From the NCBI GenBank assembly GCA_041649715.1, contig JBAZMP010000001.1, positions 146,741-210,740 of the forward strand: DNA of 64,000 nt. Direction: 5' to 3'. This stretch comes from Patescibacteria group bacterium. Lineage in GTDB: Bacteria; Patescibacteriota; Patescibacteriia; JAXHNJ01. The first letter of the stretch is position 1, and every line of letters starts with the position of its first letter. A program made the position numbers and the translations under genes. Below are positions 9,946-58,057 of the stretch, one piece after another. The notes under the pieces are model-generated. The model was not told where the DNA came from. It searched no databases and was given only the letters and a program-made list of their open reading frames with translations.

Positions 9946-10332
9946 CTATTTTGGGGGAATAATTTTTCGGCAATTTTTGCTGCCACACCGGCATAGAAAG
10001 GTAATCGGCGCCGTCTTAGCGGTGTAAAATGAAGTTATTTCCTCCCCCTTTTTAATATTTTTTGAGGCGACGTCGCACATATTTTTTACCCGCGTGTTCG
10101 CCTCGCAGGAGTGGTTTACATAGCGTTCCGGCGGCTGCATCAGAATATACCGGTTCTTTGATTTTCCCACTAGGTAATTTTTTTCGCCAGGTGGTAATTT
10201 GCTAGCCCGTGATTTTGTAATAATCCTTGGTTTTTTCCATTTAATAACTGTTTCGCCTTTTTTAAAATTCCGGCCGGCAAAAACCCCTCTACCGCAGATT
10301 TTTGATTTTTTTACGAAAATACTTTTAGGCAT
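9946..10332 (-). CDS. SET-domain protein (putative protein-lysine N-methyltransferase)
   Basis: GRGVFAGRNFKKGETV...RYVNHSCEANT...EITSFY...CRCGSKNCRK matches the SET core (GxG, NHSCxPN, post-SET Cys cluster). Preferred start is the ATG at 10332 (MPKSIFVKK...). Confidence 0.8.
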   Translation of the reverse strand: MPKSIFVKKSKICGRGVFAGRNFKKGETVIKWKKPRIITKSRASKLPPGEKNYLVGKSKNRYILMQPPERYVNHSCEANTRVKNMCDVASKNIKKGEEITSFYTAKTAPITFLCRCGSKNCRKIIPPK

Positions 10333-10591
10333 ATTATTTCTCAAGTATAACAAAAAACCGCCGTATTGGCGATTTTTTATAACCAGCAAATATTATTTAT
10401 GAAATTTCTTGGCCTTGGCTTCTAACATAAGCCTTTTTATTTCTAGCCTCTTTTTCGTTTTGTGGGAATGTGATCTTTGCCTTCGGCCCACCGCGTGCGC
10501 TCTTTTTGCCATAAAAAAATCGTTAATAATTATTATAAGCCATTCTAGCTGATTATATCAATAAAATCAATAGCTATGAATATTTATCAAA

Positions 10592-10956: not shown

Positions 10957-12897
10957 ATGGAATCCGAAAGACTACATCATGAACACGAAAGGGCGGAAAC
11001 CGCTCCTTTTACGCCTCCGGTTGTCGAGTTGTTTTTGGATCCGTCTCGGGCGGGCGAAGTCTGGCCGGAACATATCGCAGAAAATGAGGCTTTTAAGGTC
11101 CAAATAGAGACACGCCGGGAGCTGAACGAAAGGCTTGAGACTATTTTTTCACATCTGCCCCGGCCGGATATCTCGCTTCAAGAGGCGATCAAGCAAGGTG
11201 AGATCACGGAAAGCCAAGTGGCGGATCTCTTTGCTTCATTAAACCCTTTACTTGAAGATAAGGATTATCGACGGATCGCCCTTTACCTTCCTTTTGAATT
11301 TTTCCCCGAAAAAGGGAAACCCTATTCGGAAACGCTTCAGCCGGCCGCGGATCAATTTCAGAAGGCCTATATGTCGGCCTGGAAATCACTCCTTCATACC
11401 CATGATGTGCGCGCCAACTTCGTGGACGGCGATGTTCTTGAAACAGAATCCCGCGTTACCGATCTGCCGCGGGTGGTCAAGGCCGCGCATCTGATACCGA
11501 AACTGGTTAAGCATGGTTTTCTAAAAACGGGAGACGCGATTAAGCTGATGGAAACAAGCGACGATGAAATGCTTGAGGGAAGCATCGCGGACACGCTCCC
11601 TGTTTTAGCGGACATGGGATTTATCGGAGAAGCAGAACTTAAGCGGATGAAAGCCTCTGATGAGGCATCTGCCCGCGATATGGCTGAGCATATTATTGAG
11701 GAGAAAAATAGACCGGAAAAGAAAGAGGCGGAAGGAGTTGAAACGCCGGAAATAAAACTATCATCACTTCAAGGAAGGCTCCGCGATGAATTCGATGACA
11801 TTGAGGCCGAACAATATGACCACGTGACGGAAAAAAGGGCAAACTGGCTGAGACAAGAAAAAAAACGAAAAGCTATTGAATCCGCGGGCGACGCCATCCA
11901 GTCCGCGATTGCCGGCCGGACTGTCTCTTCCGAAACGGTCGCTCAATTTGTTTCTGCCGAAGCAAATGCTACCAGCCAACAAGCGCTGGTTAATGGTCTC
12001 CGAAAAACGATTGAATCCGCGCCGCCGGAAGAAGCGAATAACATTTACAAACAATATCAGGACACTTTATTATCTCTCTGGAAAAATGAGACGCCTGAAC
12101 TTCAGGCCGAGCTGGCAAAAACTTTCTGTCGGCTGAACAAACTTGGCGTGGTGGAGGATGAGCAGCTGGCCGCCCTCGGCCTTAAGATACCCGAACTGGC
12201 CGGCCCGTTCTCAAAAAATTTAGAGACCATGAAAGAAGAAATGCATGAGGTAAGAGATATCGCCGTGGCCATAGAATCAGATCCGGAGCTGTCAAAAAAG
12301 ATTTATCCCGTGGTTTCCGTTTTCGGTTCCCGGCTCAAAGGCTACGGAGACAAGAATGCCGATATTGATGTCGGGGTGTTTGTCCGGCCGGAGACATCGA
12401 TAAGCGAGCGGGAGACTCTTACAGCTTCAATCAAACAACTTTTCACTCATGAAAAGATACAGGGAAAAGTCGTGGAATTCTGGTTGGAAGAAACTAAAGA
12501 TGGTCTCGCTGTCCGTGACTTCGGCAAGCCCGATGTGACGCTAGGCGAAAGTTATTGGACGCATGTCCTCTTTGGCGCCGCGTCAGAAGGGAACAAAAGC
12601 GCGATCCGCGAACTGCGCGAAAAACTTCTTGTTCCCTATATGAATGACCAGAAAAAAGCCATCCATGGCCGAGAGGCGCGGGGACTCTATCTTGAAGAGA
12701 TGGAACGGGATACACTGCAATATCGGCTGATGCACAAGGGTTATGAACAATTCAATCCTTCTTTTGGCGGCATAAAGACACCCCACGCCGATCTGATCGA
12801 TGGCCAAAGCGCTTTCTGGGATTCAGGCTACCGTCAGACCGCCACCAAATTGTTCGCCAGCCGGGTTTTTATCCCGAAGATTTCTCATACAAAATAA
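10957..12897 (+). CDS. Large protein with a C-terminal Pol-beta-type nucleotidyltransferase domain
   Basis: Residues ~450-470 read VVSVFGSRLKGYGDKNADIDVGVFV, matching hG[GS]x9-13DhDh. Further acidic residues follow (VEFWLEETKDG). The N-terminal ~430 aa have no recognisable motif. Confidence 0.65.
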   Translation: MESERLHHEHERAETAPFTPPVVELFLDPSRAGEVWPEHIAENEAFKVQIETRRELNERLETIFSHLPRPDISLQEAIKQGEITESQVADLFASLNPLLEDKDYRRIALYLPFEFFPEKGKPYSETLQPAADQFQKAYMSAWKSLLHTHDVRANFVDGDVLETESRVTDLPRVVKAAHLIPKLVKHGFLKTGDAIKLMETSDDEMLEGSIADTLPVLADMGFIGEAELKRMKASDEASARDMAEHIIEEKNRPEKKEAEGVETPEIKLSSLQGRLRDEFDDIEAEQYDHVTEKRANWLRQEKKRKAIESAGDAIQSAIAGRTVSSETVAQFVSAEANATSQQALVNGLRKTIESAPPEEANNIYKQYQDTLLSLWKNETPELQAELAKTFCRLNKLGVVEDEQLAALGLKIPELAGPFSKNLETMKEEMHEVRDIAVAIESDPELSKKIYPVVSVFGSRLKGYGDKNADIDVGVFVRPETSISERETLTASIKQLFTHEKIQGKVVEFWLEETKDGLAVRDFGKPDVTLGESYWTHVLFGAASEGNKSAIRELREKLLVPYMNDQKKAIHGREARGLYLEEMERDTLQYRLMHKGYEQFNPSFGGIKTPHADLIDGQSAFWDSGYRQTATKLFASRVFIPKISHTK

Positions 12898-12950
12898 AAA
12901 AATACATTAAAGTATGCCCTTTCGTTAAAGCGGGTATCTTTTGCGTATAA

Positions 12951-12988
12951 AAAAAGGGGCCAGACAACAGAGTGTCTGGCCCGGCCCA
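12951..12988. terminator. Bidirectional terminator hairpin between convergent genes
   Basis: aaaaaaGGGGCCAGACAacagagtGTCTGGCCCGGCCC forms a perfect 9-bp stem (ggccagaca/tgtctggcc). It lies between the stops at 12897 (+) and 13015 (-). Confidence 0.55.
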
Positions 12989-13014
12989 CAAAGTGGGGAA
13001 AGAACGTGAATTGA

Positions 13015-14220
13015 TCAGAGTTTGCGGCCGCCGATACCGGAGAGCCGACCGCCACGGGTTCCGCCAAGCGAATCCCAGGGAATCTGGGACCCGAGCATGA
13101 ACAGCGTACCGAAGTACTGCAGCTCTTCGTTGCCGGCCGGCTGGTCCTTCACCTGCATGACCGCCAGTACGAACCGGGTGAGGTTCGTTTCCAGCCGCGG
13201 GTAGGTGGCGGAAACCGCCACGTTCAGCTGCCGGAGCATCTGGTCGCGGTTAGCTGCCCCGATCAAGGACGGCAGACGGGGATTCTCCAGCGTCTCCTTG
13301 ATCTTGGTCGCGTCGTAGGCGACGGCGGCCGTGATCTGGACTCCGGTTCCTGCGAATACGCGGTTGACGGCGTCGGCCACGGCGTCGGCGTGATCGCGAA
13401 GCACGCCGGTGTCCGGAGGCTGCATCATACCCGGAGGCATGACGCCGGCGCTGCCGGAAGCCGCCATGATCGCACTCATCATCATCGCCGGATTGGCCGC
13501 CCCCTGCATCCAGGCTTCCTGCCAGGACTTGAGCTGGTCGTAGAAGCTGATGATCGCCGGCCACAGGTGCTCGTCGATTCGCGCGAAGAGCTTTTCCTTG
13601 CGCCCCTCGGTGACATACGAGCCGTCGAAACCAGGGATGGCTTCGAAGATCTCGGCGTAGGAACGCCTGGTCATTTGTTTCCGGAGTTTGAAGAACTCCT
13701 GATCGACTTGTTCGTCGTTCTCATCCGCGAACTTCTCCATCAGTTTCACGAGACCCTCCGGAATACTGAAGAGGCCGGCCCGGTGCGCGAGGGCCGCCCG
13801 GATCGCGGAAATGACGGTCGACTGCTCGACCTTGAGCACGCCGCCTGCCCGAAGCGCTTCCAGCCAGGAGGCGTCACTCGGGACCGACGGAAGGATGTCG
13901 AACGACATGGGGCTCATGGCGCTGGCCGCCGCCGCGGGTTCGGCCGGAGCGAGTGCCTTCAGCAGGTTTCTGGCCGGTATCTTCTTCATTCCGATGCCGA
14001 CCAGGTCTCCTTCGGTGAGGCCGGACAGATCGGCGAGCGTCTCGGCGCCGATTTCCGACTTGATCTTGGTGATCATCTCGTCGTTGACGCCCAGCTCGGC
14101 CAGCTTTGCCCCCACGGGATCAACCGTGGTGGCTGGACCTGTGTCGGCGGCCGCCGAGGCCGAAGCTTCGGCCGTTCCATCGACTGCGGGATCTTTCTTG
14201 TCCTTGTCGTCTCCGTTCAT
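13015..14220 (-). CDS. Hypothetical protein (GC-rich island gene 1): acidic/Ala-rich N-terminus and an HhH/SAP-like segment
   Basis: 401-aa ORF with strong GC skew relative to the flanks. LAELGVNDEMITKIKSEIGAETLADLSGLTEGDL resembles helix-hairpin-helix/Rho-N-like motifs. The rest has no recognisable family. Confidence 0.6.
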   Translation of the reverse strand: MNGDDKDKKDPAVDGTAEASASAAADTGPATTVDPVGAKLAELGVNDEMITKIKSEIGAETLADLSGLTEGDLVGIGMKKIPARNLLKALAPAEPAAAASAMSPMSFDILPSVPSDASWLEALRAGGVLKVEQSTVISAIRAALAHRAGLFSIPEGLVKLMEKFADENDEQVDQEFFKLRKQMTRRSYAEIFEAIPGFDGSYVTEGRKEKLFARIDEHLWPAIISFYDQLKSWQEAWMQGAANPAMMMSAIMAASGSAGVMPPGMMQPPDTGVLRDHADAVADAVNRVFAGTGVQITAAVAYDATKIKETLENPRLPSLIGAANRDQMLRQLNVAVSATYPRLETNLTRFVLAVMQVKDQPAGNEELQYFGTLFMLGSQIPWDSLGGTRGGRLSGIGGRKL

Positions 14221-14236
14221 CGATATCTCCTTTCAA

Positions 14237-15622
14237 CTACTGGAAGAGTTTGTCTCGCTCGGTCGGTCCGAACGAGACCAGGCGAACCGGAACTCCAACT
14301 CTCTCATTCAGAACGCCGGCACAAAGCGCGAATAAGTCTTCTCGCTTGGCGCCGGGTGAAAGGCCGTAGGTTGTAATCTCGGGCGTGCAGACTTGAAGTT
14401 GCTCCCCGAGGGCTTCTTGATAGGCAAGTTGTTTTGCATCGTCTCCGTATCGGACTATCAGGTTGCCAGAGGGTGAAAAGAAAGTCCGATCATCAACGTT
14501 GCGGTAACGATCGCACAGGAGCCAGGCGCCGTTGGTCTGAATTTGGTCAAACCACGTGATCGCTAGGCCATTAAACGCGGTCGGACCGCCGCAGACTTCG
14601 ATTGCATAACGAAGCAATGTCAGGTCAAGCGGACCGACACGCACTTTTCCCTGGTAGCGGTTTTTCTCCTTGTGACTGCCAGGGAGAAGATTTTCAGCCA
14701 TGGCCGGATCGAAGGTTGGCATCGGGCCGGCTCCATGACGGATCTGATAGGCTCGGGTTACCCCGAGGTTGATGACTGTTCCGCTGTAGCCGGCGTCTTT
14801 CAGCATCGCCTGCGTAAAACGCGGCAATATCCGAATGGCGCTGGTATGCGGATGGAAACCGTGGAAGCAATCGTTGAGTACTCCATGCGAGCTTTCCACA
14901 ATAACCACGCCGTCTCGGGAAAGAATTTCTCTTCCCAAGAATTCGTGGTCAACGATGGTCAGCCGTCGATTGGCTTCTTGAAGTCGCCTTAAGACGTAGT
15001 TAAGGAAATCGTCGTCGTGCAGACGTTCGATTTCTTTGGCCGCCGTCTCGCGATCCTCCGGGAGAAATTCTCCGGGAAAGACCGTGGCGAGATCTTGAAG
15101 TATCTGTTCTCGAATGGCAACCAGTTTCTCGCGCAGATCGGGCCGCTTCAGATCGCGAACGAAAAGCGCAAGTTGAGGAAATCGTTGGGCCCCACGATAA
15201 GCTTCGCCAACGCCGGTGCCGATCGTACCCCGAGGATTGTTTCTTCTCGCCATTTCTTTCAGGCGCGAAGCGATTCCGTGATACGGCGTGGCACACAGTG
15301 CTTCTTCATCCACGGTTAATAGACTAAAGGGGTCGTGAATGCCGCCGGTGTAACGGAGAGCGTCGGCTTCGTTGAGCAAGCCTTCCGGTGAAACCACCAT
15401 CCGGGACGAAATATGCGTCTTCGTCCCTTCAAATGTGCCACACCCCCACTGGCTGAACGCGAAGCGTTCGCCTCTGGAAGTTGCGACTCCGTGGCTGCCC
15501 TGGGCGCCGCCGACTTTAACGATCGTGTGCGGCTTCATCCTTGTCGAGATAGCGTGTACCACGCCACCTTTACCACCATCACCCGGACCGAGATCGGTGA
15601 CGGTGTAGACTTTTTTGGTCAT
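14237..15622 (-). CDS. Adenylosuccinate synthetase family protein (divergent PurA/PurZ-like)
   Basis: Start [23 protein letters not shown] matches the PurA P-loop [20 protein letters not shown] corresponds to [19 protein letters not shown] corresponds to [26 protein letters not shown] corresponds to [38 protein letters not shown] corresponds to TRVGAGPFPTE. The ORF-track start at 15865 is a non-homologous N-terminal extension that overlaps the upstream gene. The ATG at 15622 has an RBS. Confidence 0.8.
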   Translation of the reverse strand: [461 protein letters not shown]

Positions 15623-15665
15623 AGTCACCTTTTTCGGTTTTAGGGTGATAGGCGGAAAAAACGGC

Positions 15666-16784
15666 TTAGAGCCATTCTCCCGTTTTCTCTTCGGGATTGT
15701 CTCCCGCGGGCTTTTCTTTTCCGATCTCTTTCGGATCGACCGGCCAGAGGTCGGTCTTTTCCCGGAAGAGGTCGCCTTTGACGGGACGCTTGGAAAAGTT
15801 CGGCAGCGCCGCCTGGGCCCCGATGGGGATGTTGGCGACGGAGCGAGCGATTTTCGCGACGTCATCCTTGTCGACGTTGTGCTCTTTGAGGAAGGCGGCT
15901 ACCTCTTTGAGGCTCAGCGTTCCTTCCGTCAGCCCGATGATCGTCGCCTGCACCTGCGGCAAAAGCTCGGTGCTGGGCAGGACGACCACGCGCTCACGGC
16001 CGAAAATCTTGGTCCAGTATTGGGTGGTGCGAGATCGTTCTTCCACCTGAAGGAAAAAGGCATGCGCCCGAGTCAGGAGATCTTGTACCATCTCTTTCGT
16101 TGTCGGGAGAGACCTGATATCGAGCTGATAGCTGTTTTCCTTCACCTTTTCGAAGACTTCGTCCCCGAAAATCCGGCGGAGCTGGCGTTCATCGAGCCCA
16201 TCGTGCGCCGTGGCGTCCGAGACCGTGAAATCATAGCCTTTCAGTCCGAGGGCGCAGATGTGCGCCGCGGTCAGATAAGCGGCGCCGAAAAGTCCGTAGT
16301 GCGGATCTTCCGGTTCGTCGCCGCCGTCCCGTTCCGGCACCATCAGGGTGAGCTGTTCGACGATTTTCTCGGCGACCATCTCAAACTGCGGCCGGCAGAG
16401 CACGAATAGGTCGGTGACGTCGGCGAAGATCCCGGTGGCGATCTGAAGATCGTAGCCGGGCAAAACAAGGCTGCTTAGCTCGTGGGCTTTGGGCAGGACA
16501 CGGAGGGCGATATCTACGTTGTTACCCATGCTGCCCGTGGTGTCGACCCGGGTTTCGATAGGTATTGGCGTGCCGACTGTCAGTTCCCAAAGGCCATCCT
16601 CTCGTTTCTCAAGCCGGGGCAGGGATCGGCGGATGACGCCGAATCCTTTGGGATCGACGAGCGGATTAAGCTCGCCGGTCTCCCGCGCTTTCTGCTCGGC
16701 CCGAGCGGTGGCCGGACCTTTTTCCGGCGCGAAATGCCGAACCGATTTTGCAAAAGCATCTCGTGAAAAAGTGTCATGTCCCAT
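15666..16784 (-). CDS. Hypothetical protein, possibly vWA-like (DTTGSMG MIDAS-like motif)
   Basis: ETRVDTTGSMGNNVDIALRVL fits the vWA DxSGSM beta1 motif, with downstream Thr and Asp candidates (TGIFADVTD). The GC-rich codon usage is like that of the neighbouring island genes. Confidence 0.5.
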   Translation of the reverse strand: MGHDTFSRDAFAKSVRHFAPEKGPATARAEQKARETGELNPLVDPKGFGVIRRSLPRLEKREDGLWELTVGTPIPIETRVDTTGSMGNNVDIALRVLPKAHELSSLVLPGYDLQIATGIFADVTDLFVLCRPQFEMVAEKIVEQLTLMVPERDGGDEPEDPHYGLFGAAYLTAAHICALGLKGYDFTVSDATAHDGLDERQLRRIFGDEVFEKVKENSYQLDIRSLPTTKEMVQDLLTRAHAFFLQVEERSRTTQYWTKIFGRERVVVLPSTELLPQVQATIIGLTEGTLSLKEVAAFLKEHNVDKDDVAKIARSVANIPIGAQAALPNFSKRPVKGDLFREKTDLWPVDPKEIGKEKPAGDNPEEKTGEWL

Positions 16785-16802
16785 GCAACGCTCCTTTCTC
16801 GT

Positions 16803-17615
16803 TTAGGAATTCAACGGAAACGACGTGAACGGGTAAAACTCCCGCCGCCAGAGCCCGTCGATGAGCTCGTAGAATTTAGCGTGAGCCCGTTTTGCTTCGC
16901 GCAGATTTTCGTCCGCCAGATCCAGAAGAAAAGCGGTATATTCATTATTGTCCGGGAAAAGTCTTCTTTCGAGATCACCTCCTAGCAACGTAATAATCGC
17001 TTTCGCGACCTGCGAAATTTCGGTACCGGCTATCTCGGCCGGCACGTTTTCCGGATACAGGTGCGCTTTCGACCAGTCGTAGAACACCACGTAGTGTTGG
17101 TCCGGCTCGATCAGAATATTCGCGTCATCCAGGCGCCCGACGGCGATCCCCTGGCTGTGCGCGAACACCAGGAGTTTCAAACTCTTTCCCAGTATCCACG
17201 CGCTGGTCCGCAAGTCTACTCGGCGCCGATCGCGAACCGTGATGTTGCGTAACGGCACCATCTTGGTTACATCCTCGATTTTTCTGAAGGCGAGGATGTT
17301 GATCCAGCGCCCGCCCTGCGGCTGGCATGAGAAACTGTCTACCAGCTCAGGGAATCCCAGGCCATAATTCAGAAGAACTTTCGGATCCGTCCGCACTTTT
17401 TCATACTCCGCTTCAAGCTCATCCGCCAGGCGTTTAAGCTCTTGCAGAAGGTATGAAGAGCGGCTTAGCGGGCCGTTTTGGCTCGTTTCAGCCGCGATTT
17501 GGAGCAGGCACCGGCGTCCCGTCTTTTCCTGTTTGCACAGGTAGAGTCGGTACTCGCCGGCATCCGCCACTTGGTCGCCAACGACATAGTTGTCTAACAT
17601 TCCTTCAACAATCAT
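16803..17615 (-). CDS. Atypical protein-kinase-like fold protein (Kdo/RIO-like catalytic-loop resemblance; possibly pseudokinase)
   Basis: The N-lobe-like segment is GEYRLYLCKQ...RRCLLQIAAE. FAHSQGIAVGRLDDANILIEPD...VVFYDWSKA resembles HxDLxxxNILh plus DFG-like motifs. GGGGG RBS before the ATG at 17615. Confidence 0.45.
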   Translation of the reverse strand: MIVEGMLDNYVVGDQVADAGEYRLYLCKQEKTGRRCLLQIAAETSQNGPLSRSSYLLQELKRLADELEAEYEKVRTDPKVLLNYGLGFPELVDSFSCQPQGGRWINILAFRKIEDVTKMVPLRNITVRDRRRVDLRTSAWILGKSLKLLVFAHSQGIAVGRLDDANILIEPDQHYVVFYDWSKAHLYPENVPAEIAGTEISQVAKAIITLLGGDLERRLFPDNNEYTAFLLDLADENLREAKRAHAKFYELIDGLWRREFYPFTSFPLNS

Positions 17616-17961
17616 AGATTATCCCCCTTTCAACGGGTTGGTGGCAAAACCGAAATAAATAAAACTACTAATCAATTTGTCAAAGTACCTCCTTTTATCC
17701 CCAAATTATGGATTAAGGAGATGAATCAATGTAACATATTTATGAAAAATGTCAAGGGTTTCTAAGATTACATAAAAATAACATCAAAAACACAAAAACT
17801 CGTTCTTTAGAACATGCTTATGTGTTTGGGGTTCCGACCGTACGCTTTTTTTAACTAATTTTATGGCGGTAATAAGGGATAAACAGTATTTTCGGGTAGC
17901 CATTAAACATCTACAGATGATACAGGCGTGTTACTGGTGGGCCGCGGCTGGAAGTCTGTTT

Positions 17962-18414
17962 TTAATAATTATTTGTCTGCGATTTGAAAGAATGGGTGCG
18001 GATATTTACAATTATTTGAATGATAAATAGGGCAAGTATAATAATTCCTCCTGTTTGAAAATAGTATTTCCAGACCATAACCACAAAACCATAATTCATG
18101 GCATAGTATAGGGCCAAATAGGGTATGGCCGGCCGCCAATACTTTTTCATATTCTCACGGAAAGGAATCTTTAAAATATAGTCGTACAAAAATTCCAGAA
18201 TTAAGAAGGCTAAAAATATCCCCAAGAATATACTGTAGCGAACCGTTTTTTGTTCCTGGTGCACTAAAAAAATTCCATAAACAGCCGGAATTGCCAAAAG
18301 AAAATAAAACTTGCCCACTCGTTGCAAAATGGACATTTTTTTCCGGATTAAAAAAATGTAAATTAAGAATAGATTATTTAGAATTCCGAGCCCGAAAAAT
18401 AATTTTTCTAACAT
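17962..18414 (-). CDS. Polytopic membrane protein (hypothetical)
   Basis: 150 aa containing 4-5 hydrophobic helices. Confidence 0.55.
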   Translation of the reverse strand: MLEKLFFGLGILNNLFLIYIFLIRKKMSILQRVGKFYFLLAIPAVYGIFLVHQEQKTVRYSIFLGIFLAFLILEFLYDYILKIPFRENMKKYWRPAIPYLALYYAMNYGFVVMVWKYYFQTGGIIILALFIIQIIVNIRTHSFKSQTNNY

Positions 18415-18446
18415 AAATTATAGTTTAATCTTAATACAAGTATACC

Positions 18447-18475
18447 AAAAACCATTCCTTATGGGAATGATTTCT
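18447..18475 (-). terminator. Rho-independent terminator of tRNA-His
   Basis: Immediately 3' of the tRNA on the minus strand: CAUUCC-CAUAA-GGAAUG followed by GUUUUUG. Confidence 0.6.
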
Positions 18476-18477
18476 GA

Positions 18478-18553
18478 TGGGGTGACTAGAGGGATTTGCA
18501 CCCTCGCTAAAGCCTCCACAGGGCTCTGTGCTAACTACTACACTATAGTCACC
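18478..18553 (-). tRNA. tRNA-His (anticodon GUG), with encoded G-1 and CCA
   Basis: The reverse complement folds as a cloverleaf: 8-bp acceptor stem including G-1:C73, anticodon loop CUGUGGA, T-stem GAGGG/CCCUC, CCA encoded. Unusual features are a T-loop reading UGCAAAU (G at position 55) and a D-loop with no GG. Confidence 0.85.
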
Positions 18554-19164: not shown

Positions 19165-19239
19165 TGGTACCCTCGACAGGAATCGAACCTGTGTCCGCAG
19201 CTTAGAAGGCTGCTGTTCTATCCACTGAACTACGAGGGC
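19165..19239 (-). tRNA. tRNA-Arg (anticodon UCU)
   Basis: The reverse complement GCCCUCGUAGUUCAGUGGAUAGAACAGCAGCCUUCUAAGCUGCGGACACAGGUUCGAUUCCUGUCGAGGGUACCA folds canonically: D-stem GUUC/GAAC, anticodon stem GCAGC/GCUGC, loop CUUCUAA, T-loop UUCGAUU, CCA encoded. Confidence 0.9.
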
Positions 19240-19456: not shown

Positions 19457-20164
19457 TCAATCTAGCGGTGGTTTTCTGAAGCTTTCCGGCGTGATTTTTT
19501 GGGCAAAACCGATTTTTTTGGCGTAACCGGCCACGATCCTTTGAATAGAACGGGGGGTCAGGGGCTTCAGACTTGATTTTCCGCTGGCCCGGTCGTGACG
19601 GATGAATATAAATTCACATTTATCTTTTCTTTCATTTAGATATTCTTTTAGCCAGTAATTTCCTTGTTGGCCGAGACCCAGATCATAAAGACCTTTTCGT
19701 TTTAACCGGCAGATTTCCGAGACCTTTAATTGGGAAGAAAAAAGAAGTTCTAGGAGCAATCTGTCTCTTTTCCGGATAATGGCGGCGATTTTTTGTTCTT
19801 CCGGCGCCGCCATGATTTTTTCCAAATCTTTTCTAGACACTATCTCATTTGTTTTATTTTTCACCGGATATAGAGAAATTTTTTCGGGGTCGAGGTTATT
19901 GATATTTTCTTTATTCAAAAACTTTAAAAAAGCCCGCAAGGCGATAAGATGATAGTTCTGGGTGCTTTGATTCAGCTTGAGTCGATTGAGTCTTAGGCGA
20001 AAGGCGCGGATGGCCGGATAATTTAATTCTTCGGTTTCTGATATATCCATCAAGTCAATAAATCGGCCGAGGTAAAATTTATAGTTATTAAGGGTGGCCG
20101 GGCTTATTTCTTGTTTTTTGGCCCTTATAAAATCCGCCAATAAATTTGTTAACTCTTTTCTCAT
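19457..20164 (-). pseudogene. Tyrosine recombinase (XerC/XerD/phage integrase family), degenerate and C-terminally truncated
   Basis: An N-terminal SAM-like core-binding domain is present, followed by the LRKRDRLLLELLFSSQLKVSE region. Box I Arg appears replaced (QLKVSE). The protein ends at ...KITPESFRKPPLD, before the HxxR...Y catalytic segment, so no catalytic Tyr is encoded. Confidence 0.55.
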
Positions 20165-20318: not shown

Positions 20319-20585
20319 ATGCCTTTATCAAAACAGCAAAAGGACAGGATTATTGAAAAATTCAAGACCCATGCCTCCGACACCGGCTCTTCCGAGGTGC
20401 AGATCGCTATTCTTTGCGAAGAGATCCGCCAGTTGACGGACCACCTAAAGACCCACAAGAAAGATTTTTCTTCCCGGAGGGGTCTGCTCCGCAAGGTGGG
20501 CTTGCGCCGCCGGCTGCTCAAGTATCTGGAAAAGGACAATCTAAAAAGCTACGAAAGTCTGGTTAAGAAATTAAAACTAAAATAA
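20319..20585 (+). CDS. rpsO: 30S ribosomal protein S15
   Basis: 88 aa: MPLSKQQKDRIIEKFKTHASDTGSSEVQIAILCEEIRQLTDHLKTHKKDFSSRRGLLRKVGLRRRLLKYL is canonical S15. Confidence 0.95.
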   Translation: MPLSKQQKDRIIEKFKTHASDTGSSEVQIAILCEEIRQLTDHLKTHKKDFSSRRGLLRKVGLRRRLLKYLEKDNLKSYESLVKKLKLK

Positions 20586-20586
20586 T

Positions 20587-21117
20587 ATGCCGAAGCACGC
20601 AGAACAGCGCGTCGGCGTTTTCGTCGACGTTTCCAACATGTATCATTCCGCCAAAAATCTTTACGGCGCGAAAGTAAATTTTGGCAAAGTTTTGGAAGAA
20701 GCGGTTTCGGGGCGGAAACTGATCCGGGCCATTGCCTATGTCATCAAGGCGGCCAGCCAGGAAGAGCAGAATTTTTTTGAAGCCCTGGACAAGCAGGGGT
20801 TTGAGGTGAAGATGAAGGACCTGCAGGTTTTTTGGGGGGGGGCGAAAAAAGGCGACTGGGATGTCGGCATCACCATTGACGCGGTGTTGCTGGCCAATAA
20901 AATGGACGCGGTGATCTTGGTCACCGGCGATGGCGATTATCTGCCGCTGGTCAATTATTTGAAGACCAATAAGGGTTGTTTTGTGGAAGTGATGGCTTTC
21001 GGTGAATCCTGCTCCACCAAACTGAAGGAAACCGCCGATGAATTCACCGATTTATCAGCCAATAAAAAGAAATATTTGCTGCCGATCAGCCCCCGCCGTC
21101 TGGCCAGAAGAAGATAA
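20587..21117 (+). CDS. NYN-domain (LabA/YacP-like, PIN-related) protein
   Basis: VGVFVDVSNMYHSAKNLYG...GDWDVGITIDAVLLA...VILVTGDGDYLPLV matches the NYN-domain conserved acidic positions. Confidence 0.8.
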   Translation: MPKHAEQRVGVFVDVSNMYHSAKNLYGAKVNFGKVLEEAVSGRKLIRAIAYVIKAASQEEQNFFEALDKQGFEVKMKDLQVFWGGAKKGDWDVGITIDAVLLANKMDAVILVTGDGDYLPLVNYLKTNKGCFVEVMAFGESCSTKLKETADEFTDLSANKKKYLLPISPRRLARRR

Positions 21118-21132
21118 TTAATTTTTAAAAAT

Positions 21133-21855
21133 ATGTCGAATTATAATGAGTCCGTCGGTGAAAGTCTGGGAACCGGCCCAGCGGAATCAGGCTACGAGCC
21201 CGATCTATATTTTCGACCACCGGCCACGGAACAAGATTACGAGCGATTTTCCATCGCTGACTCTTTGGATAAAAGTTTTAACGAGATAGATGAAATGCCG
21301 GCGATGCCCGATATCGTTATAAGTCCGGAGGAAATAAAAGATATTTCCGAACGGGAAGCCCTGCAAAAATATTTAAAAGAGATTTTGACCGAATTGTTCG
21401 CCAATTCGAGAATTAAAGATTTTCGGCGGCAAACAAAAAAAGAAGGCTATACGGTCCTAAGTCGCCTGGAAAAAGAAGAGATATTCAGAATATATGACCG
21501 GATAAAATCCCAGGCGCGGGAGAAAATCGGCCCTCTTTTAACGCCCAAATTGCTGAACGAAGTCAAATTTATCACGGGCAGCGACCTGAATCATTCTTTG
21601 CGGTCAAGAATCCTGGAGGGGGGCGATGCCGAACCCTGGATGATATTAAACCCCATTAAAAAGGGGCGTTTCAATCGTTTGGTCGACTACATGGATTCGC
21701 GAAAATTACGTCTCTTTTTGAGAAATTCTTTGAGCAAAAAAGGCGATATTAAGTTCATTCGGCAGTCCGTGAAGGAAGGGACGGGAACTGAAGCGATGGC
21801 CGAAGTGGCCAAAGATTTTCCCGACGTGGAAGAAGAAGCCGCTGAAGCCAAATAG
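21133..21855 (+). CDS. Hypothetical acidic protein
   Basis: 240-aa ORF immediately downstream of the NYN gene. No recognisable family. Confidence 0.55.
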   Translation: MSNYNESVGESLGTGPAESGYEPDLYFRPPATEQDYERFSIADSLDKSFNEIDEMPAMPDIVISPEEIKDISEREALQKYLKEILTELFANSRIKDFRRQTKKEGYTVLSRLEKEEIFRIYDRIKSQAREKIGPLLTPKLLNEVKFITGSDLNHSLRSRILEGGDAEPWMILNPIKKGRFNRLVDYMDSRKLRLFLRNSLSKKGDIKFIRQSVKEGTGTEAMAEVAKDFPDVEEEAAEAK

Positions 21856-22018
21856 CCCGTTGGTCTGGACAAATAGGCGAAAATAAGCTAGAGTATCTAT
21901 ATTCGCAACTTAATAATTATCTTGGCCGTCAGACAGGTGGACTATCAAAAACAGGCAAATATAAGCCATTTTGCGTAGTCTAAAGCCTGCCGGCCAAACA
22001 TTCGGAAAGGAATTTTTT

Positions 22019-24262
22019 ATGTCCGTGCAAAGATTTGAAACGGAATTGGCCGGAAAAAAACTAATCATCGAGACGGGTAAGCTCGCCGCACAGGCCCACG
22101 GCTCCTGCACCTTGCAGTACGGCGAAACCGTCGTTTTGGCGACCGCTGTCATGAGCCAGAATGTCCGGGAAGGGATAGACTACTTCCCGCTTTTGGTTGA
22201 CTACGAAGAGAGGCTGTACGCCGCCGGCAAGATCAAAGGCTCGCGCTTTATCAAGAGGGAGGGCCGGCCTTCGGATGACGCCATTTTGGTATCCCGGCTG
22301 GTGGATCGGGCCATCCGGCCTTTTTTCAACCAAAAAATGCGCAATGATGTGCAGGTCGTCATCACGGTTCTCTCCGTGGATATGGAGAACGATTCCGATA
22401 TTTTCTCTCTCATCGCCGCTTCCTGTGCCCTGCATATTTCCGACATTCCCTGGGCCGGGCCCTTGGGTTGCGTCCGGGTCGGCCAGATTTCAGGTGAATG
22501 GGTTTTAAACCCCACTTATGCCGCCCGGGAAAAAAGCGATTTTGACCTGGTTGTGGCCGGCACCGCGGAAAAGGTGGTCATGATGGAAGCAAAAGCGAAT
22601 GAAACCCCGGAAAAGACCATCGTGGAAGGGATCGCCTTCGGCCACAAAAATTTGAAAAAGATAATTGATCTGATCGAAGAAGTCAGAAAAAAGGTCGGTT
22701 CGGAAAAAATCAAGCCGGATTTTGAAGAATTGACCGATGAGGAAAAGTCCGCTTTTGAAAAAGTGCAAAGCAAGGTCAAGACTTTTACCGCCGGAAAACT
22801 GAAGGAATTGCTGACGATCAAGGAAAAGGCCAAACGCGAAGAAGAACTGACCCGCTTAAAAGAAGAGTTGGACCAGGCCTTAAAAGATGATAACGAAGTA
22901 TCTAAAGAAATGCGAGAAGAGGCTTCGGATATTTTAGAGGATTTTTTGGACGCGGAAGGCCAGCGCTTGGTTTTGGAGGAGAACAAGCGGGTGGATGGCC
23001 GGGCCCTGGATGAGATCCGGCCCATTTCCTGTGAAGTGGGGTTGCTACCGCGTACCCATGGTTCGGGACTTTTCAACCGCGGCGAAACGCAGGTACTTTC
23101 CATTGTAACCTTGGGTTCCCCCGGCGACGAGCAGACTCTGGATACGATGGAGGAATCCGGCAAGAAAAGATACATGCATCATTATAATTTTCCCGGTTTT
23201 TCCACTGGCGAAGTCGCGCCCTTAAGAGGGGCGGGACGGCGGGAAATCGGGCACGGGGCGTTGGCGGAAAAATCGCTTGAACCGGTCTTGCCCTCCAAGG
23301 AAGACTTCCCCTACACCATCCGCGTTGTCTCGGAGGTTTTATCCTCCAATGGCTCAACCTCCCAGGCCTCGGTCTGCGGCTCATCCTTGGCTTTAATGGA
23401 CGCTGGCGTGCCAATAAAGAAGCCGGTGGCCGGCATTGCCATGGGTTTGGTTATGGATGAAGCGAGCGGTAAATATAAGATTATCACCGATATTCAGGGG
23501 CTGGAAGATCATTCCGGCGGCATGGATTTTAAGGTGGCGGGCACGCTTTCAGGCATTACCGCCATCCAGCTCGATGTTAAAGTTTCGGGCCTGACCCTAA
23601 AGATTTGCGAGGAGACTTTAGCTAAAGCGAGAACGGCCCGCGAGTATATCCTTCAAAAAATAACGGCAGTGATCAGCCAGCCCCGGAAAGAATTATCGCC
23701 TTACGCGCCTCGTATTTATTCTTTGAGGATCGATCCGGAGAAGATCCGCGACGTGATCGGCCGCGGCGGCGAAGTTATCAACAAGATCATCGATGAATGC
23801 GGCGGACGCGACGTGACCAAAATAGATATTGAAGACGACGGTCTGGTCATGATCACTTCTCACAATCCGGAGATGGGCGTAAAAGCCCTGGAGTGGGTGA
23901 AAAACCTGACACGTGACGTGGCGATTGGCGAGATCTATGAAGGGACCGTGACGCAAATCATGCGGGACAGGATGAATGAGGCGAAAGAGATCGGCGCTAT
24001 TGTCGAACTTTTCCCCGGCCACGACGGCATGGTTCATGTCTCGGAGTTTTCCTATCAGAGGATTGACAAAGTAAGCGACGTGGTTAAAGTCGGCGACAAA
24101 TTAAAAGTTAAAGTGGTTGACGTAGATAAGGAAAGAGGCCGGGTTAGCCTTTCGGTTAAAGCTTTGTCCCAGGCGCCGGCCGGTTACGAGAATTTTTCTC
24201 GTGATTCGCGCCCTTCTGATAACAGAAAAAGAAAGCCATTCGGCTTCCGTAAAAGATTCTAA
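22019..24262 (+). CDS. pnp: Polyribonucleotide nucleotidyltransferase (PNPase)
   Basis: MSVQRFETELAGKKLIIETGKLAAQAHGSCTLQYGETVVLATAV..., two RNase PH-like cores, and C-terminal KH and S1 regions (VAIGEIYEGTVTQIM...). The ATG at 22019 follows a GGAAAGGAA RBS. Confidence 0.95.
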   Translation: MSVQRFETELAGKKLIIETGKLAAQAHGSCTLQYGETVVLATAVMSQNVREGIDYFPLLVDYEERLYAAGKIKGSRFIKREGRPSDDAILVSRLVDRAIRPFFNQKMRNDVQVVITVLSVDMENDSDIFSLIAASCALHISDIPWAGPLGCVRVGQISGEWVLNPTYAAREKSDFDLVVAGTAEKVVMMEAKANETPEKTIVEGIAFGHKNLKKIIDLIEEVRKKVGSEKIKPDFEELTDEEKSAFEKVQSKVKTFTAGKLKELLTIKEKAKREEELTRLKEELDQALKDDNEVSKEMREEASDILEDFLDAEGQRLVLEENKRVDGRALDEIRPISCEVGLLPRTHGSGLFNRGETQVLSIVTLGSPGDEQTLDTMEESGKKRYMHHYNFPGFSTGEVAPLRGAGRREIGHGALAEKSLEPVLPSKEDFPYTIRVVSEVLSSNGSTSQASVCGSSLALMDAGVPIKKPVAGIAMGLVMDEASGKYKIITDIQGLEDHSGGMDFKVAGTLSGITAIQLDVKVSGLTLKICEETLAKARTAREYILQKITAVISQPRKELSPYAPRIYSLRIDPEKIRDVIGRGGEVINKIIDECGGRDVTKIDIEDDGLVMITSHNPEMGVKALEWVKNLTRDVAIGEIYEGTVTQIMRDRMNEAKEIGAIVELFPGHDGMVHVSEFSYQRIDKVSDVVKVGDKLKVKVVDVDKERGRVSLSVKALSQAPAGYENFSRDSRPSDNRKRKPFGFRKRF

Positions 24263-24275
24263 AACATTAGTCTTT

Positions 24276-24833
24276 ATGATAATATCACTTTCCGGCGCGC
24301 CCGGCAGTGGCAAATCAACGGTCGCCAAAAAATTGGCGGACCGTTTGGGATACAAGCGTTATTATATGGGTGAGATTTTGCGGCTTAAGGCGAAGGAGAA
24401 AAATATGACTCTGGCGGAATATTTGAAACTGGGCGAGACGGATTTTTCAGTTGATAGGGAAGTCGACCAGTACATGAAAGAATTGTCCAAAAAAGAAGAT
24501 AATTTCATTATAGAAAATCGTACTGCTTTTCACATTCTTCCTCAATCTTTGAAAATCTATTTAGATATTCAAGAAAAGGAAGGAGCTAAACGGATATTCT
24601 CGGACTTGAAAATTAATCCTACGAGAAACGAAGCCAGAAATCTAAATTCGGTCGAAGCGGTTATTAAAGCCAATAGAGAGCGCCGGATAGGTGACCAGAA
24701 AAGATACCGACAATATTATCAAATCGACCTGTTTAACCCCAAGAATTATGATTTTGTCCTGGATACCACGAATTTAAATCCTGAGGAAGAATTCCAAGAG
24801 GTGTGGCGCTTCGTTAAGAGTAAATTAGGCTAA
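24276..24833 (+). CDS. cmk: Cytidylate kinase, archaeal-type (type 2 Cmk-like P-loop NMP kinase)
   Basis: MIISLSGAPGSGKSTVAKKLADRLGYKRYYMGEILRLKAKEKNMTLAEY... resembles short archaeal-type Cmk, not bacterial Cmk. Confidence 0.7.
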   Translation: MIISLSGAPGSGKSTVAKKLADRLGYKRYYMGEILRLKAKEKNMTLAEYLKLGETDFSVDREVDQYMKELSKKEDNFIIENRTAFHILPQSLKIYLDIQEKEGAKRIFSDLKINPTRNEARNLNSVEAVIKANRERRIGDQKRYRQYYQIDLFNPKNYDFVLDTTNLNPEEEFQEVWRFVKSKLG

Positions 24834-25642: not shown

Positions 25643-28600
25643 ATGAAGAAAAAATTATATATTATCTTAAATTTTCTCACCGTTCTTTCCCTCGTCGGTC
25701 CTTTTTCTTTTATGAATGTGAATTTCGCGCAAGCAATAACCGCCGGTCCAAGCATATCAGTATACGCCGGCGACACCACTTTGGATGAAACTACCAGCTA
25801 TATTATTACTTTAAATCACATTCCTGAAATGACCACGACCGAAGTTTGGCATAACATCCAGTTTTTTACGGGAATTAATTACCGCGGGGCAGAAAATCCG
25901 AATGCAGAAATCGATTTTTCGAATGCCACTCTGACTGGCGGTTACGTCCGTGTTTACACGGGCGAATCCTATGTGACCGTGCCCGCGGGACAAACGGAAT
26001 TGCAGACTAGTGCCGATAATATCAGAAATTTTGATTTGATCATTAATGGTGCCTACAGTATACCCGAAAATGCCCTGATTAAGATTAAAATAAATAATGT
26101 GGTTAATCCCAGCGTCGCCGGCACTTTCAGCGCCTGGTTTAACGGCGGCTTTTCAGATAATGTAGGTTGGAACGACATAGGCGGCGCACAAAATGATAGT
26201 GCCCTGCTTCTAGGGATCGATAAATTCATTAACGGTGACGTGACGTATAAGACGGGAGGGGCGGTTACCACTTGTGCGATCAACGCCAATAAACAGGGGG
26301 CGCAGGAATGGGCAAACGCCGATTGCGACGGTAGCGGCCACTATAACTTGGGCTTGACTTCCGCTGGTACCTGGCAGGTTCATCTTGATGCCAAAAATAT
26401 CAACGGCCAAAGAGTGACGACGGACTGGATTTATGAAGGATCCGATTCTTATGTTGAGGCTAATGTCGCGGGCACTTATACTCAAAATTTTTCGGTGGTT
26501 AAAGCCACTTCTTCGGTTATGGGGAAAGTACTTTTGGCAAACGGCGCCGTCCCCGCTAACCCATGGGAATATCGCGTGGACATCAGGAATCAGCAAGGAC
26601 AGGGTTCCGGGACTAATTTGGGTAATGATGGCGCGTTCAGTGTTCCGGTTTTAGCCGGCACCTACAACCTCAGCGTCAATTCGCAGAACGCGCAATTTTA
26701 TGTTGATCCTCTAAACATAACGATCGGAAATGATCAAACAAAGAATGTCGGTACTTTAACCCTGAAAGAGAAGACGGCTGCCATCAAGGGTAAGGTGACC
26801 GATGACTCCGGTTCACCGGTCAGCGGCCTAAGGGTGAATATGTGGGGCCAGAATGGTTGGGGAGAAGGCCGGACGAACGCCAATGGAAATTACACCATCT
26901 GGACTTATAAAGGTGACTGGGAAATAATGGTTGATCAGATGGAGGCCGGCCAGCAGGGTTTGATCCAGCAGGGCGAGCCAAACCGGATTTCCATTACTGA
27001 AAATGATCAGATTGTGACCGGGGTTAATTTCAGGTTGATTCAGACCGATGCCACGGCCAAACTGACCATTCTTGATATGAACGGGGTTAAAGCCGGCAAC
27101 ATAAATGGTTACGCTTATTGCCGCAAAGCCGACGCGATGCCCGGTCCGGGCAGTGATTTTGGCATGGGTTTGGGCGGTCAAAGCGCGAACCCCGTTTCCA
27201 TACCGGTTATCGGCGGCGAGACCTACGTCTGCGGCGTGAACGTACCCTCCGAAATGAACTTAGCTTTGGATAAGGAGGTCGAGGCGTATATCGGTGTCGG
27301 CCAAACCAAATCCATCAGCGTTGTTTTGCTTCATAATGATTCGGAAATTGTCGGCTACTTGAGGGATGCGTCAAGCGGCGCCGTGATTACCAATGTCGAG
27401 GGCGATGTCTTCGCCCAAGGCGAAATGAAGGGCATGGGTTATCATTCTTTCATCAATGCCGATGGAAGCTACCGTTTGTCAGTCAAGGGCGGCAGCTCAT
27501 ATTTCTTGGGATATAATATCAGAACAGCCGGCTATGTTCAGGGCCAGCCGGATCAGTCGCCGGTCGTCGTACCGGCCAGCAGCCGCGTGGTGAAGACCTT
27601 GAAAGTGCATAAGGCTAACGCCAATCTAAATATCACGGTGCTTGATCCCGACGGGAGTAAGGTGACATATGCCTGGGTGTGGTGTGATAACATGAAACAA
27701 AAAGAGAACGAATTAAAAGGTTCTTTTGAGGGCGGAGAGGTTTTGCATGCCGGCGGAGAAACCAATCTTTCGGGCGTGGCCAAACTGCCCATCGTCGCCG
27801 GGGAGTATACTTGCGGAGCCGGTCTGCCGCCCAACATGGCGCAGTACATGCCGCCAGAGAATGCGGAGATAATGATTGTGTCCGGGGCGACGGAAAACAT
27901 CACTTTGCAATTCAGGGAATCGGAAGGGACGGTTAAGGGCAGTGTCACGGATGAGAACGGCAGCGAAATGTCAATGGGTTTTTGCCATGCCTGGAATCCG
28001 GAAGGCGGTTTTTCCGGGGGCCAAGTCTTTAACGGTTCATACAGCATTCCTCTGACCCGCGGCACCTGGTATGTCGGCTGCGACAGCATGAACGGCCAGG
28101 AATTTTTCCGATCGGATGAAATGCAGATCAATCTTGAGGCGGTGGGCGATAATATCAGCAAAGATTTTGTCTTAAGAAAATCAAGTTTTGAGATTCCGCA
28201 GGGCATCAGCCAGAGTTTTGATGCCAGCACTTTAACGGTTATTAATTTGCCGGACGGCTCAATGATCACTATTCCCGCCAATGCCGTCGCGACTTCCGGC
28301 ACCTACACCTTGACCGCTTCACCGAATATTAATCTTTACCATACGCCAGAGGCCAAGCCAGCTTTAGGCTTTGCCTGGTCTTTTGAACTGACCGATTCAA
28401 GCGGCCAGTCGGTAACCACGAACTTCAACAGCAATGTTACCATCACGATAAAATATGATGAGGAGATATTGCGAGAAATGGGTATTGATGAGGCAAAGAT
28501 CATCGGCCGCTATTGGGATGAGGCTTCTTCCACCTGGAAGATGCCGGATAATATCGTGCAAGATACGGAAAACAATATTATCAATATCATGATCGATCAC

Positions 28601-50747: not shown

Positions 50748-50753
50748 AGACCT

Positions 50754-54125: not shown

Positions 54126-54139
54126 CGATAAATTTTCTT

Positions 54140-58054: not shown

Positions 58055-58057
58055 TCA

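Follow-up and report, generated by a model that had tools for sequence, protein, structure and literature searches.

Adenylosuccinate synthetase (PurA, EC 6.3.4.4, PF00709) uses Asp13, Lys16, His41, Asp333 and its P-loop to transfer the γ-phosphate of a nucleoside triphosphate (NTP) to the C6 carbonyl of a purine and to run acid/base catalysis. Enzymes of the same family are carried by phages. PurZ of phages phiVC8 and S-2L, which makes precursors of 2-aminoadenine (the Z base) from deoxyguanosine monophosphate (dGMP), is about 340 amino acids long, has Ser at position 13 and is accompanied by DatZ and MazZ. Another PurA-like protein is found in the Cluster C (Bxz1-like) mycobacteriophages. 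In Catera, the order is gp249 (annotated as a ‘kinase’), gp250, a small open reading frame (ORF) and the PurA-like gp252, and the function of this set is uncharacterized. Here, we describe a divergent PurA homolog encoded in a GC-rich block of four genes from a Patescibacteria group bacterium (GenBank assembly GCA_041649715.1, contig JBAZMP010000001.1, positions 146,741 to 210,740; this whole stretch of 64,000 nucleotides is referred to as the window). The block lies on the minus strand at positions 13015-17615 of the window and encodes, in order of transcription, a kinase-like protein (K), a von Willebrand A (vWA) protein (V), the PurA-like protein (A) and an unknown protein (U). A convergent nucleotidyltransferase gene (NT) follows.

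This partner set sets the locus apart from each described system. PurA has no vWA partner, whereas A is always paired with a vWA gene. Like PurZ, A belongs to the family collected in phrog_1211, however its clade keeps Asp13, is 350-460 amino acids long and is accompanied by V instead of DatZ and MazZ. The Cluster C set holds homologs of K, V and A that keep both the gene order and the active-site signature of the clade, but its K carries a J-domain-like region with an HPD motif and a kinase domain that passes the cut-off of Pfam PF00069, a small ORF separates V from A, and both U and NT are missing. The TerY-P triad, which reportedly consists of a vWA protein, a Ser/Thr kinase and a PP2C phosphatase, also pairs a vWA protein with a kinase-like protein; in contrast, PP2C is absent from the operon and its flanks, K does not have conserved catalytic residues, and the constant partner is a PurA-family protein. 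No description of the module was found in the literature, which was covered only in part, and this negative is no proof that none exists. We place the locus within the PurA/PurZ enzyme family, as a variant whose set of partners has not been described before. It is best read as a heteromeric PurA-family ligase that would act on a substrate other than aspartate, and we lean, by a little, towards a chromosomal cluster that is conserved across the phylum, vertically maintained and encodes a multi-subunit enzyme around A.

A (14237-15622, minus strand) is the only clearly catalytic subunit. Its ORF spans 14237-15865, and the most likely start is the ATG at 15622, which is preceded by a Shine-Dalgarno-like AAAGGTG and yields a protein of 461 amino acids; public gene calls use this start, and more than 100 homologs have this length. 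An earlier note on this DNA, made from the sequence alone, had called the protein an adenylosuccinate synthetase homolog, and the family assignment is borne out by a full-length match to PF00709 (E 1.3e-34), which takes in positions 8-411 of the 416 in the profile, and by alignment with PurA chains of the PDB over residues 11-421. The best PHROG match is phrog_1211 (E 1.5e-46), the family that holds PurZ. Identity is low throughout, at 25% to Escherichia coli PurA, 24% to phiVC8 PurZ and 34% to Catera gp252.

The active site was mapped in E. coli PurA numbering on a MAFFT alignment, and a clade signature was read from 55 Patescibacteria and phage sequences; residue roles at the aspartate, inosine monophosphate (IMP) phosphate, catalytic and GTP sites follow the PurA structural literature. 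Asp13, Lys16, His41 and the P-loop, which serve phosphoryl transfer and acid/base catalysis, are kept in the clade, as is Asp333, which binds guanine. D15, K18 and H44 of A, the counterparts of the first three, are invariant in 21-78 orthologs. In contrast, every contact to aspartate (hadacidin) on the map differs from PurA: V273 is His, T300 is aromatic (Trp or Tyr), T301 is Gln, R303 is deleted, and R304 and R305 are non-basic, R305 being hydrophobic (Val). In the alignment these replacements are invariant or nearly so. The contacts to the 5′-phosphate of IMP are also gone: R143, supplied by the partner subunit, is lost (Glu, Asp or Gln), T129 is Cys, Val or Ile, and N38 is Gln. At the GTP site, K331 is His, Cys or Trp. 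The Patescibacteria proteins additionally have His in place of Q224 and a P-loop that reads GDGGKGG instead of GDEGKGK. From this pattern we infer that A is enzymatically active, using an NTP to activate a carbonyl that is then attacked by an amine; by analogy with PurA, the activation is likely an O-phosphorylation. The amine would be one other than L-aspartate, and the acceptor may not be a simple 5′-mononucleotide.

V (15666-16784, minus strand; 372 amino acids) appears to be an obligate partner of A. Its fold is Rossmann-like, of the vWA type, and the DTTGSMG motif resembling a metal ion-dependent adhesion site (MIDAS), seen already in the earlier note, is present and invariant as D81-T-T83-G-S85-M, with Thr in place of the first Ser, and neither D122 nor D190 varies. 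Across Patescibacteria and 63 phage homologs, the invariant positions DxTGSM, D122, QFE133-135, G154, E159 and D190 all hold. V has no match to any Pfam family at E<=0.01 and thus none to a Pfam VWA model, so that membership rests on fold and motif. Given the fold, DTTGSM was taken for an ordinary variant of the vWA motif DxSGSM and not for a ‘DKTGT’ motif of the haloacid dehalogenase (HAD) or P-type kind.

The pairing of V and A extends far beyond the Patescibacteria. The closest relatives of A in cultured phages are the ‘PurA-like adenylosuccinate synthetases’ of Cluster C mycobacteriophages (E 4e-42), and in Catera both upstream genes are homologous to those of the window by hhalign (V and gp250, probability 98.8, E 5e-17; K and gp249, probability 98.8, E 7e-17). 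Among cultured phages, homologs of V were recovered from 203 Cluster C mycobacteriophages, 10 phages of Rhizobium and 6 of Vibrio, and a search for the PurA-like clade returned the same genus counts. Vibrio phage phiKT1024 and Rhizobium phage RHph_TM21B each have V and A side by side. A tblastn search of cultured phages with V, U and NT of the window gave no match; the homology of V emerged with profiles or with a phage V as query. Relatives of A are encoded at 68 viral loci of IMG/VR. Of 65 such loci, 62 have a V-family gene directly upstream of A, and in 28 a K-like gene lies upstream of V.

The phage copies stand in neighborhoods rich in genes of nucleotide and nicotinamide adenine dinucleotide (NAD) metabolism, including Nampt, NMNAT/NUDIX, NadE, nicotinamidase-like, NADAR, dNMP kinase and NrdDG genes; replication genes are also present. 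For instance, NAD-salvage genes, among them an isochorismatase-type nicotinamidase and an NrtR-like NUDIX, are found within a few kb of the V-A pair at loci L101, L104/L106, L108, L110, L155 and L156. In one IMG/VR locus (L113:3400-5925, plus strand), an intein that contains a LAGLIDADG homing endonuclease splits the phage A gene close to the part for N-terminal nucleotide binding. Inteins are typical of functionally important genes.

A phylogeny of A had been proposed in the earlier note as a check. In a neighbor-joining tree, which carries no support values and is indicative only, the V-associated PurA-like proteins group together, apart from E. coli PurA and phiVC8 PurZ. The Patescibacteria form one subclade nested in the phage sequences, next to the J-domain kinase group that includes Catera, a nesting that would be expected had a phage module been captured once, long ago.

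K (16803-17615, minus strand; 270 amino acids) had been described as kinase-like on the strength of a catalytic-loop resemblance (HSQGIAVGRLDDANILI...YDW), which, like the other motifs quoted at the time, is indeed present in the window protein. The kinase likeness probably stands at the level of the fold and fails at the catalytic residues. Among scans with Pfam, NCBIfam, PHROG and PADLOC, the sole match of K is phrog_3043, a ‘kinase’ (E 1.2e-7), with no Pfam match for K itself, and its family profile matches the catalytic-loop region in the C-lobe of CK2 (7.8e-6 over 45 residues) among PDB sequences. The β3 Lys, the HRD Asp and the DFG Asp are each less than 70% conserved among 47 Patescibacteria orthologs, and K of the window reads GRLDDAN, with Arg at the position of the HRD Asp. 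From its sequence, K is best called a pseudokinase-like scaffold. Several phage K proteins have an N-terminal J-domain ahead of the kinase-like domain, with PF00226 matches down to 3e-15; Patescibacteria K proteins do not have one. J-domain-bearing homologs include those at L091:5867-6913, L092:4820-5968, L095:5024-6112 and L127:5481-6479, and also L083:3610-4683. In the 679-residue protein P0414, K and V are naturally fused: its N-terminal 352 residues match K (hhalign probability 99.6), and residues 348-668 match the V profile (E 2e-52). A heteromeric enzyme in which V engages the catalytic subunit or its substrate through its metal site is suggested by the strict adjacency of V and A, the fusion of K to V and the invariant MIDAS.

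The two remaining proteins distinguish the Patescibacteria version. U (13015-14220, minus strand; 401 amino acids) is Patescibacteria-specific, with no viral counterpart found among cultured phages by tblastn or in the viral search. It is modeled as all-helical, at a predicted local distance difference test score (pLDDT) of 74.6, and its predicted layout starts with disorder at the N-terminus, continues with a SAM/(HhH)2-like domain at about residues 35-90 and, after a linker of low complexity, ends in a novel all-α domain. Scans of V and U with Pfam, NCBIfam, PHROG and PADLOC gave nothing usable, and the family profiles of V, U and NT returned nothing significant from PDB sequences beyond the nucleotidyltransferase core. 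That core is the C-terminal domain of NT (10957-12897, plus strand; 646 amino acids), a nucleotidyltransferase of the Pol-β (MNT-like) type matched by PF18765 (E 1.4e-5), PF01909 (E 7e-5, above cut-off) and an MntA-type NCBIfam model (E 2.5e-4), in which G457-S458...D469-x-D471 is invariant or nearly so. The N-terminal part, about 400 residues, has no domain assignment. An HD domain was considered for it on account of ‘HDVRANFVDGD’ and rejected, as the His is not conserved and no profile matches. It is a matter of speculation whether this MntA-like enzyme could regulate the complex by nucleotidylation, as GlnE does glutamine synthetase. The earlier note had missed NT altogether, along with the want of conserved catalytic residues in K and the presence of the module core in many phages.

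Within the Patescibacteria, the cluster is widespread and its order is stable. A has more than 1,700 database relatives, and the best 120, at 64-77% identity, are nearly all labeled Patescibacteria; the families of V and U are likewise deep and are unannotated. When each GTDB species was represented by a single genome, a pattern scan gave a match in 466 species genomes, from which 80 loci were fetched and inspected by tblastn. Across these 80 loci, K, V, A and U follow each other on one strand and are met by convergent NT, and the arrangement is kept in gut and rumen Saccharibacteria at only 42-47% identity in A. NT lies directly downstream in nearly all loci with enough flank. U is absent in a few loci (L011, L018, L032, L035 and L050), where NT comes directly after A. 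The five genes are all that the loci have in common, the rest of the flanks being different. Pairwise identities of A and K follow those of NT (Spearman ρ 0.81 and 0.80, respectively), and identity between distant classes, at 42-77%, is compatible with purifying selection.

Several metagenome-assembled genomes labeled Gammaproteobacteria, Fibrobacteres, Omnitrophota or ‘Fimivivens’ (L003, L004, L007, L010, L011, L013, L018, L038 and L050) carry a five-gene cluster of the Patescibacteria type at 54-70% identity, which suggests that these records are mislabeled or mis-binned.

Several features of the locus suggest that K, V, A and U would be expressed together. The gaps between K and V, V and A, and A and U are 18, 43 and 16 nt (with the start of A at 15622), and a purine-rich ribosome-binding site precedes each of the four starts. 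Upstream of K, an AT-rich leader of 345 nt holds a candidate σ70-like promoter (17755-17728, minus strand), with TTGACA, a 16-nt spacer and a TG-extended TACATT, matching the consensus at 10 of 12 positions. Between the convergent U and NT genes lies a GC-rich hairpin terminator (12982-12957, minus strand) with a 10-bp stem, seven GC pairs and a T-tail; it stands between an A-run and a T-run and probably works in both directions. Since the promoter and the terminator bracket K-V-A-U, the four genes are taken to form one operon. An Rfam scan of operon and leader revealed no riboswitch or other known RNA, and tRNA only. The window proteins have 100% identical database copies. An assembly chimera, raised in the earlier note as an alternative, is improbable, since block and flanks recur together in ENA ERZ27247363 and in an assembly made independently, Logan SRR8542065.

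In the proposed mechanism, A, V and K would form a complex. A would phosphorylate an oxo-purine-type (or analogous carbonyl) substrate and then couple it to an amine other than aspartate. V would bind the enzyme or the substrate through its MIDAS metal, and K would act as a scaffold or regulator, with the J-domain of the phage proteins recruiting host Hsp70. U, with its SAM/HhH-like domain, and the nucleotidyltransferase would be accessory or regulatory parts specific to Patescibacteria.

A number of points weigh against the view of a conserved, vertically maintained multi-subunit ligase. The association of A, V and K is drawn from synteny and one fusion. The residue mapping stems from alignments at 24-34% identity, in which the loop 298-306 is least certain and one alignment has the 38-41 region shifted by a column. 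The loss of a single ligand is no proof, for PurZ, which uses aspartate, is likewise aligned without R303. The pairwise identities of V and U correlate only weakly with those of the other genes (ρ 0.3-0.5). Moreover, the module is not universal in Patescibacteria, and the text and supplements of the Southlakia transposon sequencing (Tn-seq) paper make no mention of it.

Four other explanations compete with the ligase. The first is a non-metabolic machine, in which A would be a nucleotide-dependent switch or a protein-modifying enzyme in a chaperone-linked assembly, with a protein or nucleic acid as its client instead of free nucleotides. vWA MIDAS domains, as in integrins and in vWA itself, usually bind protein carboxylates. 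The J-domains of phage K, a SAM/(HhH)2-like module in U, a type known to bind proteins or nucleic acids, and an MntA-like NT from a family that nucleotidylates proteins all point in the same direction. So do a level of conservation that is very high for proteins of Patescibacteria and the loss of the 5′-phosphate ligands R143 and T129, as if the substrate were not a free mononucleotide. However, A has the PurA fold in full and still has its acid/base pair for catalysis, which speak for small-molecule-type chemistry, no client can be identified, and the phage copies neighbor nucleotide and NAD metabolism rather than structural genes. We regard such a machine as unlikely.

Still less credit is due to a divergent housekeeping enzyme that converts IMP, Asp and GTP, with neighbors unrelated to it. 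The full-length PF00709 match, the public annotation as adenylosuccinate synthetase and the conserved D13, K16, H41 and GTP-base ligand D333 are what such an enzyme would display. Patescibacteria subsist on nucleotides that they scavenge (bioRxiv 10.64898/2026.06.21.733656). Enzymes of interconversion would be of use to them. Against a housekeeping role, 93% of their genomes have no nucleotide biosynthesis modules according to the same preprint. The scores of A also fall far under the NCBIfam equivalog cut-offs for PurA (86 bits against 402 for NF002223 and 82 against 395.6 for TIGR00184), the aspartate ligands together with R143 and T129 are all replaced in an invariant manner, and V adjoins A not only in the viral loci counted above but in all inspected Patescibacteria loci. 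No PurB was found in the annotations obtained for the window, which is 64 kb of the genome; other loci were covered as fragments of up to 21 kb.

A third explanation, the one favored by the earlier note, holds that the block is a recently acquired genomic island with a defense or toxin module. The observation behind it is sound: the four tightly spaced genes have a GC content of 0.580, compared to 0.464 ± 0.036 in 502 other segments of equal length, none of which exceeds 0.524 (z = 3.2), and are bordered by AT-rich sequence (0.336 at 17616-18480 on the leader side and 0.436 at 12898-13014). The excess is greatest at third codon positions, where the G+C content (GC3) is 0.80 in U, 0.70 in V, 0.65 in K and 0.58 in A, against 0.36-0.64 in other long ORFs of the window. 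Two tRNA genes, tRNA-His(GTG) at 18478-18552 and tRNA-Arg(TCT) at 19165-19239, and a tyrosine-recombinase-like gene of 235 codons at 19457-20164, which encodes an N-terminal SAM-like domain and part of the catalytic domain, lie on the minus strand just past the leader, all within 2.5 kb, and the core genes are found in phages too. However, neither the tRNAs nor the integrase-like gene are conserved neighbors of the cluster in other genomes, where the five-gene arrangement recurs across the phylum between unrelated flanks. K-V-A-U is richer in GC than its own 5-kb flanks in 61 of 65 Patescibacteria loci, with a mean difference of +0.092, while NT has the composition of its surroundings (0.45, compared to a flank average of 0.43-0.44). 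Because the block always lies beside the same gene of host composition, co-diverges with it and is GC-rich nearly everywhere, it is not a recent import. Nor was evidence found for a role in defense or toxicity, with no PADLOC-DB match for K, V, A or U and only weak ones for NT (E of at least 5e-4). A recent island is thus very unlikely. The statement of the earlier note that no described system matches the locus holds, as far as these searches and the literature found can tell.

The high G+C content, above all at third codon positions, would then be a selected property of the genes rather than the mark of a transfer in the recent past. The excess is phylum-wide and gene-specific in AT-rich genomes, and it is strongest in U, with a mean GC content of 0.58 across loci. 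The simplest idea is that codons were selected for high expression, since the genes for S15, PNPase and an NYN-domain protein are also rich in GC3 in the window.

Least probable of all is a PurZ-type enzyme making Z-base precursors from dGMP, since, for all that A falls in the PHROG of PurZ, has phage-borne relatives and shares with phiVC8 PurZ a non-polar residue at T129 and an aromatic one at K331, it scores 14.6 bits against a cut-off of 300 with the NCBIfam PurZ model (NF038379), keeps Asp where PurZ has Ser at position 13, is separate from it in the tree at low identity, and is not accompanied by an HD (DatZ) or MazG (MazZ) protein among the four operon products, NT or the called neighbors, as had been remarked for the operon in the earlier note, just as phiVC8, in which PurZ stands beside a dATP triphosphohydrolase, has no V.

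Returning to the heteromeric ligase, it is possible, if doubtful, that vWA-partnered PurA-like proteins make up a new enzyme class, common to large phages and Patescibacteria as two kinds of nucleotide parasites, that catalyzes an undescribed reaction. Candidates would be a direct, PurB-independent amination of a 6-oxopurine compound, the re-amination of a deaminated adenine compound, or a reaction that links a purine nucleotide to an amine of a protein. The substrate of re-amination could be a nucleotide, an NAD-type dinucleotide or a base in nucleic acid. Activity would be assembled or controlled by the kinase-fold scaffold, which in phages would hijack host Hsp70. Such a class is compatible with the conserved catalytic core, the remodeled aspartate and phosphate sites, and the NAD and nucleotide genes that recur beside the phage copies.

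The remainder of the window holds several other genes of note. A SET-domain protein of 147 amino acids (PF00856, E 7.8e-14) is encoded at 9946-10389 on the minus strand, just upstream of NT. The genes for S15, the NYN-domain protein and PNPase, together with a cytidylate-kinase-like gene, are located at 20319-24833, a few kb from the operon. PNPase and Cmk are reported to form the RNA-scavenging nucleotide route of Patescibacteria (bioRxiv 10.64898/2026.06.21.733656). Very large ORFs of 1869, 1123, 1313 and 1208 amino acids lie at 45138-61684 on the plus strand, and an FG-GAP-like protein of 1356 amino acids is encoded at 25643-29713, also on the plus strand. With their faint CBM_4_9 and FG-GAP matches, these are presumably surface proteins.

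For the annotation of these genomes, it follows that public ‘adenylosuccinate synthetase’ labels are not evidence of a purine pathway, and that a local GC peak alone is no evidence of recent transfer. Most Patescibacteria, which account for a large share of bacterial diversity, have no nucleotide biosynthesis, yet hundreds of species keep a strongly conserved operon of distinct composition, built on a purine-biosynthesis-type enzyme with rebuilt substrate pockets. Many large phages likewise carry the V-A pair in their regions of auxiliary metabolism, among them more than 200 well-studied mycobacteriophages amenable to engineering. These bring within experimental reach a function on which the purine management of nucleotide-dependent parasites, or a new nucleotide modification, may centrally depend.

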